Shown in pieces: positions 32,664 through 36,100 of a stretch of 64,000 nt of DNA. The position numbers were made by a program, and so were the translations under genes. Within the stretch, counting starts at the first letter, position 1; each line of letters opens with the position of its first letter. The notes beneath the pieces are model-generated. The model was not told the origin of the DNA. It saw only the letters and a program-made list of their open reading frames with translations, and did not search any database. Origin of the DNA: an uncultured Trueperaceae bacterium (lineage in GTDB: Bacteria; Deinococcota; Deinococci; Deinococcales; Trueperaceae); assembly GCA_963727505.1 (NCBI GenBank), contig CAVSGP010000009.1, positions 672,001 through 736,000 of the forward strand. Direction: 5' to 3'.

Positions 32664-32667
<4 letters not shown>

Positions 32668-33203
32668 GCTGGCTCGATCTGGTCCTGGTGGCGGTCGTGG
32701 CCGCCGTGACCGCCTTGGGTGCCCACCGCCGACTGTCGGGCTTCTTCGTCGGTCTCGGGGGCGTGCTGCTGCTGCGCCCTCTGCTCGAGCTGGCGCATGC
32801 GAACCCGTTCCTCGCCCTGGTCGCCGCGCTTCTCGCCGGGCTCGGTTTGAGCATGCTCGGCCGGCGGTTGTTCCAGCAGAACCGTGGCTCCGCTGGCTTG
32901 ATGCGCGCGCTCGGCGGTTTCGGGGGGCTCGCGCTCGGCCTGGCCCTGATGCTCTCGCTGGTGACCTCGCTCCCGATCCAGCGCAACCCGGCCAACCCCA
33001 GCGAGCTCTTCTACCCGCCGCGGAACCTTCCTTCGCCGATCTCCAGCGCTGTGCTGGATTCGCGTTTGGTCCTTCTGGGACGTGATATTCTGTTCTATCC
33101 CTTGCTGCACAAGCAGGGGAGTGTGGACGCGGGCCAGCAGCGGCTCATGCGCGGGTTGCACCGGCTGTTCGTGGTCGGAGAGCCGTGGAACGAGACCCTG
33201 TAG
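32664..33203 (+). CDS. Membrane protein, possibly CvpA-like
   Basis: WLDLVLVAVVA start, several TM segments, LGGFGG; ATGA overlap with pheT. Confidence 0.7.
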
Positions 33204-33254
33204 AGCGCCGGCGAGAGTAGGAGGGCCAGGGGCTTCCACACAGGACGTCGAGGA

Positions 33255-33560
33255 AGCGCAAGCCCGGCGGCGCGCCGATGCGGCTGCCGGTGACGAGGCG
33301 GAGGGCTTCCGGGCCCGAGGAGGGCGCCGGAGGATAGCGGGTCTCCCGAGACGATGGGTCTCGGGTGAACACGCGAAAGCGCGAACCGAGGACGCCGATG
33401 AACGGTGCACTCGCCGCCCAGCGGGGCGGGAAGTCTGCGGGCCCCTCCCGAGTTGAACCCCTTGCTCGATACCGTCCGGGTTCAGAGGATCGGGCTGTCC
33501 CCCCGAGCGAAGTCGCAACCAGACGCGGTCGGCACGGCGCGTGACGTCCGCGTAGGGCAC
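33255..33560 (+). ncRNA. glmS ribozyme-like riboswitch with large internal insertion
   Basis: AGCGCA, P1 (ccggcggc/gctgccgg), GACGAGG, GGAGGG ... TGCGGGCCCCTCC, then P3 with a pseudoknot; directly upstream of glmS. 3' boundary uncertain. Confidence 0.75.
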
Positions 33561-33586
33561 TATTGGATCCCAAGAAGGGACGTTTC

Positions 33587-35443
<1,857 letters not shown>

Positions 35444-35452
35444 GCCGTTGCG

Positions 35453-36100
35453 GTGAACGACGAGGCACGTGGGGTACGCGCCGTGGCTAGGCCGCGCGCC
35501 CGCCTGCTGGCCGCGACGGCGGCCCTGGCGCTCCCGGTCGCCGTGTTCTGGGCGGTGGCGATGGCTGCCGCCCCCGGCGCCGCGAAGCAGCCTCCGCCAC
35601 TCACCGTTCCCCGCAAGCCCAGCATCGCCGCCGGCGAGCGCCTCTATCCCGAGACGTGCGCGGCCTGTCACCGGGACCGCACGGTCTTCGCCGACCGCTC
35701 GTGGCGGGTGGGCAAGACCCCGGCGGAGGTGACGCGCATGCTCCAGGGCGCGGCCCGAGGACACCCGGCGGCCCTGCCAGACCTCGCCCGGGCGTGGGAC
35801 GCCACGGCTTACGTGTGGACCCTGCCCGACGACGGGGCGAGCATCCGGCGTGGCGAGAGCCTGGCGCTGGAAGCCGATAAGGCGCTGCGCGCGGACGTGC
35901 TGAGCGTGGCCCTTCTGCACTGGAACGACCTGCAGGACCTCAAGAGCGCCTCCTGGGTCCTCAACCACACGGCGGACGAGGTCGAGACGCTGATGCGTCG
36001 CCTTGCGGGCTCCCGTTACACCGACCTCCAGCCGGAGGACCGGCGGGCGCTCATCGACTACGTGTTCGCGTCGTTTTTCACCTGGCCGTCGAACTGGTGA
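35453..36100 (+). CDS. Exported c-type cytochrome domain protein
   Basis: Signal-like N-terminus; GERLY..CAACH; apparent second, heme-less repeat. Confidence 0.7.
   Translation: MNDEARGVRAVARPRARLLAATAALALPVAVFWAVAMAAAPGAAKQPPPLTVPRKPSIAAGERLYPETCAACHRDRTVFADRSWRVGKTPAEVTRMLQGAARGHPAALPDLARAWDATAYVWTLPDDGASIRRGESLALEADKALRADVLSVALLHWNDLQDLKSASWVLNHTADEVETLMRRLAGSRYTDLQPEDRRALIDYVFASFFTWPSNW

Follow-up and report, generated by a model that had tools for sequence, protein, structure and literature searches.

A probable glmS ribozyme subtype of the Trueperaceae with hairpins inserted in its core and a predicted helix to the leader 5' of the cleavage site

A window of 64,000 nucleotides from an uncultured Trueperaceae bacterium (GenBank assembly GCA_963727505.1, contig CAVSGP010000009.1, positions 672,001 to 736,000 of the forward strand) carries, at window positions 33243-33485 and directly 5' of the glmS gene on the same strand, an RNA element that we consider, with a probability of about 0.8, to be a functional glmS ribozyme belonging to a subtype found across the family Trueperaceae; its catalytic activity is deduced from conserved motifs and from analogy with ribozymes studied elsewhere. 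An initial annotation, made from the sequence letters alone, had described a glmS ribozyme in which the two arms of helix P2 are held apart by a very large insertion, and direct reading of the + strand agrees with it. The canonical landmarks (A↓GCGC, with the arrow at the scissile bond, P1, GACGAGG and the P2 arms) all lie upstream of glmS at the positions that it gave, with A(-1) at 33255 and G1 at 33256 within AGCGCAAG, and 137 nt separate the P2 arms, versus about 22 positions in the consensus line of the Rfam glmS model, RF00234. The glmS start codon is the ATG at 33587, not 33588.

Distribution, covariation and ties to accepted glmS ribozymes

Using DNA searches, we found homologous leaders in all nine genomes of the window's genus, with 70-96% identity. 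A scan of 185,579 species genomes with the 20-mer GTCTGCGGGCCCCTCCYGAG returned 66 loci, 64 of which carry AGCGCAAG and (G/C)ACGAGG upstream at fitting distances; the remaining two are a chance match in Streptomyces without the other motifs and a locus cut by a contig end. The taxa, where the record titles give one, are Trueperaceae, Truepera, Deinococcales, Deinococcaceae, Deinococci and the Thermus/Deinococcus group. Leaving out these two loci and adding four from the genus gave a set of 68 distinct leaders, to which the leader counts below refer. All 68 have AGCGCAAG and (G/C)ACGAGG upstream, nearly all come from genomes titled Trueperaceae, and in 65 of them a GlmS N-terminus is encoded 100-372 nt downstream (two of the three exceptions have cut flanks). 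The 16-mer GTCTGCGGGCCCCTCC, of which the window's own genome has one copy, is present in 87 of the 128 genomes examined from the family, in 59 of the 79 that are of high quality and in 28 of 36 genera (the unpublished G118 counting as one positive), while its reversed control pattern gave no hit across the 128 genomes. The value of 87 is a lower bound, as G013 has the same build with a change of one base in the motif.

The covariation analysis with Trueperaceae homologs that the initial annotation had suggested was performed on a MAFFT alignment of the 68 leaders carrying a hand-written structure (alignment A1), with two kinds of control, 3' partners slid by 1-3 columns and 500 shuffles. Over the 55 pairs counted, 88.1% of the cells are paired, compared with 33.7-46.1% when the partners are slid, and none of the 500 shuffles reaches any of the five measures. 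The tested structure was drawn from the same sequences and is for that reason favoured over the slid controls; given the margin and the number of pair types, however, this is unlikely to be the sole cause of the signal. P1, P3, P3.1 and the inserted hairpins described below are backed by this covariation. The closing pair of P3 is U-A in 53 leaders, C-G in 14 and U-G in one, which places the P3 3' strand at CUUG (33461-64) and not at the CUCG that follows, as first drawn; this inner choice covaries and the outer CUCG belongs to another helix, P0 (see below).

P3.1 could not be counted by MAFFT columns, owing to indels in the loop, and was followed with a script that took the ungapped loop and tail as anchors. 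The 25 distinct strand pairs recovered include CGACCC/GGGUCG (12 leaders), ACCCC/GGGGU (10), GAACCC/GGGUUC (8), CACCCC/GGGGUG (6) and GGAUCC/GGAUCC (5), and it is in this list of compensating pairs that the support for P3.1 lies, not in an unanchored cross-control, which discriminates weakly (own mean 5.79, cross mean 4.64). The pairing proposed initially between the P3 loop TGAACCC (33454-33460) and GGGTTCA (33478-33484), only some 10 nt after P3, is upheld by these 25 pairs. Of the core helices, P2 is GGAGGG/CCCUCC in 68 of 68 leaders, partly by construction of the search, with the strands in the order of the Rfam consensus; P2.1 retains its C-G pair in 65 leaders and its G-C pair in 67, and has an A facing G at its third position in all 68. 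Invariant catalytic motifs amid drifting hairpins form the pattern that would be expected if the catalytic centre were under selection.

The element can also be followed, relative by relative, to accepted members of the glmS ribozyme family. RF00234 was searched across 40 relatives, belonging to the window's own family (f1) and to four sister families of the same order (f2-f5), of which f3 and f4 have leaders that we call Thermus-type. It matched 4 of 4 genomes of f5 above the cut-off (42.8-49.4 bits), 4 of 4 of f2 (31.7-35.6 bits), 4 of the 24 sampled from f1, all weakly (14.7-25.6 bits, with 25.6 bits at the glmS leader of G021), and, at E up to 1, none of the four genomes each of f3 and f4. 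The f4 leader L021 gave no match at E up to 10. As controls, Bacillus subtilis and Deinococcus radiodurans were positive and Thermus thermophilus negative. In the cmscan alignments of L034 (f5) and L023 (f2), AGCGCAAG, ACGAGG and UCUGCGG stand at consensus positions, and the identical motifs are present in the window; this chain of relatives within one order, sharing aligned core motifs, ties the window leader to accepted family members. PMC7125110 describes a bulged A6, an essential C2-G56 pair and a poorly conserved 5-53 pair, and all three fit the window. The GCGCA/UGCGG combination that had been taken for a compensatory change is not peculiar to this locus; it is found across the whole order, including Rfam-matched leaders, and involves that same 5-53 pair.

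Inserted hairpins, the P0 helix and the loss of P4

According to the alignment and to folding, the insert comprises four local hairpins at two sites, A and B before the 3' strand of P2.1, and C and D after it, in the P2.1-P2.2 loop. Among the 68 leaders the interval from GACGAGG to GUCUGCGG measures 65-240 nt (median 114.5) and, apart from the junctions, its sequence is not conserved. The initial annotation had closed the whole insert with CTTCC (33306-33310) and GGAAG (33429-33433), a helix that does not survive the comparison, as CUUCCGG pairs locally with CCGGAGG in the covarying hairpin A and the position of GGAAG is not conserved. The complementary sequences CCCGAGAC (33345-33352) and GTCTCGGG (33358-33365; GUCUCGGG as RNA) that it pointed out are present and lie inside hairpin B. 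Its CGC-GAAA-GCG tetraloop hairpin (33372-33381) lacks conservation as such; the GAAA is instead a linker that does not vary, and the 3' strand of P2.1 lies within GCGA. The site of hairpin C is that of a 23-nt insertion in the Rfam-matched L034 of f5. When eight leaders were folded, a second hairpin in the C/D region was present in the five closest relatives of the window (L001, L004, L051, L087 and L100) and was not shown by L107, L022 and L091. Hairpins A and B are present in every leader and the junctions are conserved; the sequence varies and the C region may be nearly absent (Table 1). Variable hairpins with conserved junctions fit a peripheral scaffold rather than a sensing aptamer.

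Three Trueperaceae metagenome-assembled genomes (L063, L072 and L092) have an enlarged hairpin B of 134-172 nt, AT-richer and with sub-hairpins of its own; the insert there reaches 205-240 nt with the core motifs unchanged.

The helix that we name P0 would join the leader 5' of the cleavage site to the strand between P3 and P3.1, in two segments (P0a, the outer, and P0b) with a 3-nt bulge between their 3' parts. P0 alone has 81.3% of its cells paired in alignment A1, versus 19.4-37.4% with slid partners; 8 of its 10 pairs change on both sides, and its covariation score is reached by none of the 500 shuffles. The pair adjoining CGAG/CUCG, for example, is U-A in 18 leaders, A-U in 12, G-C in 11 and C-G in 4, and is unpaired in 23. 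The contiguous P0b helix is 4-8 bp long, with 6 bp in 30 of the 68, and the AT-rich G021 has UUGGG/CCCAA and GAUU/AAUC at the P0 positions. One clade (L022, L052, L067 and L078) seems to lack the outer part, P0a. In the Rfam consensus 19 unpaired positions precede P1 and P4 starts 4 nt after P3, so that the consensus holds no P0.

In 64 of the 68 leaders the 3' strand of P3.1 begins 11-16 nt after P3. These few nucleotides leave no room for P4/P4.1, which is absent, and they are used by P0. The suspicion that the usual P4 position had been rearranged was right in that P4 is missing from its usual place; what occupies the strand between P3 and P3.1 is P0. We also considered a pairing of CUCG (33465-68) with the CGAG of GACGAGG as an off-state. 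It was dropped, because the covariation of the flanking positions follows the 5' leader and because neither G021, with UUGGG/CCCAA, nor the Thermus-type leaders are able to form it.

The order of parts common to the Trueperaceae leaders begins with the P0 5' strand, 2 nt, A↓GCGCAAG, P1, U-GACGAGG and (C/U)GGAGGG, continues with hairpin A, AUAG, hairpin B, N-GAAA-RY-GCGA-R, an optional hairpin C and sometimes D, and ends with (C)AA-GUCUGCGG, GC-CCCUCC, P3, the P0 3' strand and the P3.1 3' strand. The parts of the window element are listed in Table 1.

Table 1. Parts of the predicted ribozyme and the glmS gene (window coordinates; counts refer to the 68 leaders of alignment A1)
Feature	Position	Strand	Evidence and remarks
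P0 5' strand, upstream of the cleavage site	33243..33252	+	P0a GGACG 33243-47, partner CGUCC 33473-77; P0b UCGAG 33248-52, partner CUCGA 33465-69
Predicted scissile bond A(-1)/G1	33255..33256	+	AGCGCAAG invariant in 68/68 leaders, partly by construction (boundary regex)
P2.2 5' strand CGCA, bulged A 33261, then G 33262	33257..33262	+	Complementary to 33435-39; 5/5 pairs invariant
P1 hairpin, stem 33264-71 / 33283-90	33264..33290	+	6/8 pairs change on both sides; 90.3% of cells paired
GACGAGG core motif, P2.1 5' strand 33294-96	33292..33298	+	ACGAGG invariant; aligned to the Rfam consensus in sister-family leaders
P2 5' strand GGAGGG	33300..33305	+	Pairs with 33443-48; invariant
Inserted hairpin A	33306..33333	+	6/7 base-proximal pairs change on both sides; 95.2% of cells paired; 68/68 leaders, 17-73 nt; fold
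Junction J1 AUAG	33334..33337	+	AUAG 41, AUAC 11, ACAG 5, GCAG 5, AUAA 4, other 2
Inserted hairpin B, holding cccgagac/gtctcggg 33345-65	33338..33373	+	5/5 base pairs change on both sides; 73.1% of cells paired; 68/68 leaders, 10-172 nt; fold
Junction J2 AAAGCGCGAA, P2.1 3' strand GCG 33381-83	33376..33385	+	AAA and GCGA (nearly) invariant
Inserted hairpin C	33387..33413	+	Fold; region of at most 6 nt in 18/68 leaders (optional)
Inserted hairpin D, CCGCCC-AGCG-GGGCGG	33414..33429	+	Fold
GUCUGCGG, P2.2 3' strand 33435-39	33433..33440	+	Complementary to 33257-62; invariant, but in the search pattern
P2 3' strand CCCUCC	33443..33448	+	Invariant by construction of the search pattern
P3 hairpin, stem 33449-52 / 33461-64, loop 33453-60	33449..33464	+	Closing pair covaries; 96.3% of cells paired
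P0 3' strand: CUCGA 33465-69, UAC bulge, CGUCC 33473-77	33465..33477	+	Covariation with the 5' leader
P3.1 3' strand GGGUUCA, partner the P3 loop 33454-60	33478..33484	+	25 distinct strand pairs among 68 leaders
Hairpin CGGG-CUGUCCC-CCCG after P3.1	33491..33505	+	In a subset only; 68.8% of cells paired
glmS coding sequence	33587..35443	+	TIGR01135 796.5 bits (cut-off 418); NF001484 812.1 bits

The hairpin that follows P3.1 occurs in part of the family, with CGGG/CCCG, GGGG/CCCC or UGGG/CCCA stems and a pyrimidine-rich loop of 7 nt. In G013, which belongs to an AT-rich genus of the same family, the leader L040 (1510-1740) has the J2 motif GAAAAUGCGAA in three tandem repeats and GUCAGCGG as the 3' strand of P2.2, putting an A opposite A5; about 450 nt separate this ribozyme from the glmS gene downstream of it. 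Two other genomes of the family, G135 (contigs C39 and C302) and G141 (contigs C1 and C9), have two copies of the 16-mer each, which could represent two ribozyme-controlled genes or an assembly duplicate. The open reading frames on both sides of glmS in the window, at 32664-33203 (+) and 35453-36100 (+), match no NCBIfam model. The upstream one stops 40 nt before the P0 strand, and glmS may be co-transcribed with it; in G020, a genome without the ribozyme motif, glmS likewise follows the C-terminal part of that coding sequence (...CCGTGGAACGAG).

Comparison with canonical and sister-family ribozymes

With the canonical ribozymes of RF00234, such as those of Bacillus and Thermoanaerobacter, the Trueperaceae element shares its place in the glmS 5' untranslated region, the A↓GCGC cleavage motif, P2.2 with its bulged A, P1, GACGAGG, P2 around the 3' strands of P2.1 and P2.2, and P3 with the loop-to-tail pseudoknot P3.1. 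It differs from them by the far wider spacing of its P2 arms, by the four hairpins at two sites, by the absence of P4/P4.1 and by P0, which has no counterpart in the consensus.

The Thermus-type elements of the sister families f3 and f4 (loci L019, L021, L013, L015, L111-L114 and L120-L149) look like ribozymes of a related build. Their leaders read AGCGCAGG, P1, (C/U)ACGAGG, GG(C/U)GG, hairpin A, AUAA and hairpin B, followed by GAAAG(A/G)UCGA, UCCGCGG-AUGCC(G/A)CC, P3, the P0 3' strand, a P4-like domain and the P3.1 strand. A 15-mer motif of this type is found in 19 of 23 genomes of f3 and 65 of 68 of f4, in none of 95 of f2 and none of 19 of f5, and in 5 of 95 of f1. With one strand anchored directly behind P3 and the other no more than 2 nt from A(-1), a P0-like helix of at least 5 bp was found in 26 of 32 distinct Thermus-type leaders, with strands such as GCGGG/CCCGC (8), UCGGG/CCCGA (4), ACGGG/CCCGU (3), AGCGGA/UCCGCU (2), GCGAG/CUCGC (1) and others; its own mean length of 4.94 exceeds the 3.8 of mismatched flank-tail combinations by a modest margin. 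The f2 and f5 leaders offer only GGG/CCC for such a helix and lend P0 no support. In an unanchored P0 test across f2-f5, shuffled flanks equalled the real ones in most rows. P0 is thus well supported by covariation in the Trueperaceae, and only suggested in the Thermus type.

The two types have in common hairpin A, the AUAA/AUAG junction, hairpin B, the GAAAG junction and the P2.1 strand, in this order, as well as P0 and their invisibility to RF00234. In the Thermus type, however, P0 and P3.1 are still separated by a P4/P4.1-like domain of some 50 nt, UCG and AUGC stand where the Trueperaceae have GCG and GCCC, and P0 and P3 measure 5-7 bp and 6-7 bp, respectively. In the Trueperaceae type, by contrast, P4 is lost, P0 extends to about 10 bp with a bulge, and hairpin C (and D) is often present. 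The f5 leaders also have a hairpin at the site of hairpin C, and the Rfam-matched leaders of Deinococcus type (L023 and others) have the GCG form of the P2.1 strand, as in the window. The Trueperaceae type thus unites two Thermus-type features, the A/B module and P0, with an f5-like hairpin at the C site. The periphery of the ribozyme is rebuilt, in a design that is not unique to this genome; the A/B module and apparently P0 recur in the two Thermus-type sister families.

A 2011 abstract by McCown, Roth and Breaker in the journal RNA reportedly mentions Deinococcus-Thermus variants whose catalytic core has extra stems and whose core-supporting substructures are altered, and the Thermus-type leaders of f3 and f4 are probably these variants. 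If so, the Thermus-type design would already be in print, and the Trueperaceae design would be a further step. A literature search found no paper on these Thermus- and Deinococcus-related variants, on Truepera glmS ribozymes or on a P0 helix, which is weak evidence, the work of McCown et al. lying outside its coverage.

Strength of the assignment, proposed mechanism and significance

Several results speak against a functional ribozyme in the window. RF00234 gives no glmS match there at its gathering score (37 bits), and none at E up to 10 on 33100-33700 (601 nt), on 33235-33320 (86 nt) or in the whole genome of the organism; none of the nine genomes of the genus has a glmS match either. The expectation that Rfam does not represent this variant was thereby borne out. 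By minimum free energy, the leader folds no better than shuffled sequences do (z = -0.85). A scan of 32900-33650 found no promoter or terminator; for P0 to form, the transcript must include 12 nt or more 5' of the cleavage site. The core helices P2, P2.1 and P2.2 show conservation and no covariation; for P2 and P2.2 this invariance says nothing either way, because the search pattern already contained their 3' strands and the regular expression the 5' motif. Near the active site, an A faces G at the third position of P2.1 in all 68 leaders, and the tetranucleotide that separates the 3' strands of P2.2 and P2 is GCCC, compared with AUGC in sister-family leaders. Finally, the exact 16-mer is missing from 41 of the 128 family genomes and the complete genome G020 has no ribozyme motif before glmS, so that the element must be dispensable in some lineages.

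Some of these results would be expected of a former glmS ribozyme that has lost catalysis and is kept as a structured 5' untranslated region, for example one that binds GlcN6P (glucosamine-6-phosphate) or a protein and acts on translation or stability: RF00234 is silent, the P4 domain is gone, and the A opposite G in P2.1 and the GCCC lie close to the active site. We nevertheless consider this unlikely, as none of the 68 leaders, from at least 28 genera, departs from the cleavage motif, the bulged A, GACGAGG or the P2.2 strand, while the hairpins drift, and as the GCG form of P2.1 is also that of the Rfam-matched Deinococcus-type leaders. The further proposal of the initial annotation, that the insert of about 125 nt might form an extra domain for docking or sensing, in effect a second aptamer giving the ribozyme a new input, could appeal to the conserved AUAG and GAAA motifs at the junctions and to a position within the core, adjacent to the P2.1 strand that, according to PMC7125110, contributes to the cofactor pocket. 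The comparison resolves this insert into four separate hairpins of widely varying length and sequence, without conservation beyond the junctions and with a C region that is optional, and the CTTCC/GGAAG helix that would have enclosed such a domain is not kept; a second aptamer is, to us, even a little less likely than lost catalysis. That the likeness to a glmS ribozyme is a chance set of motifs in GC-rich intergenic DNA can be entertained because the motifs are short and the leader is very GC-rich and folds no better than shuffled sequence. Chance is nonetheless extremely improbable in view of the same ordered motifs upstream of glmS in 65 of 68 leaders, the covariation in seven helices and the empty reversed-pattern control.

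We thus favour a functional glmS ribozyme, for which the following mechanism is proposed by analogy. The catalytic double pseudoknot, formed by the A↓G site, P2.2 with its bulged A, P1, GACGAGG with P2.1, and P2, would be kept, and GlcN6P, when abundant, would bind the preformed core as a cofactor and cause self-cleavage between 33255 and 33256. Binding in a preformed core and the cofactor role are known from studied ribozymes (PMC5473149 and PMC2258182). The cleaved glmS mRNA would be left with a 5'-OH and be degraded by RNase J, a gene for which is encoded in the same genome (TIGR00649, 536.6 bits for a cut-off of 400), and less GlmS would be synthesised. In Bacillus, the downstream fragment is degraded by RNase J1.

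P0 is predicted to leave the fold at the P3/P3.1 junction, where P4 exits in canonical ribozymes, and to end 2 nt from the scissile bond. As a clamp of about 10 bp between the leader and the P3-P3.1 linker, it may take over part of the supporting role of P4 and hold the substrate strand, and hairpins A-D together with P0 would serve as a core-stabilising scaffold in place of P4. Minimal constructs reportedly remain catalytic when the P4/P4.1 domain is left out. PMC7125110 deals with a core-only construct. It is possible, and we put it forward tentatively, at somewhat less than even odds, that the replacement of P4/P4.1 support by P0, together with a group of two to four hairpins set into the core, defines an undescribed architectural class of glmS ribozymes in the Trueperaceae, in which the 5' cleavage product is a structural part.

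These findings leave the purpose of the ribozyme unchanged. They do point to a blind spot in annotation: RF00234 gives no match or only weak, sub-threshold ones for these variants, yet their own motifs are present in 87 of 128 (f1), 19 of 23 (f3) and 65 of 68 (f4) genomes, and genome annotations in the Trueperaceae and in the Thermus-type families likely lack this riboswitch. The series from the Deinococcus type, without inserts, to the Thermus type, with A, B, P0 and P4, and to the Trueperaceae type, with A-D, a long P0 and no P4, would illustrate how much foreign structure the glmS core carries and how one support domain may stand in for another. By linking the leader 5' of the cut into the fold, P0 could alter the handover of the cleaved mRNA to RNase J. 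Should P0 prove to be required, the Trueperaceae would possess a natural self-cleaving riboswitch that needs sequence on the 5' side of its cleavage site in order to act, and would also offer a clean natural case of one peripheral domain exchanged for another.

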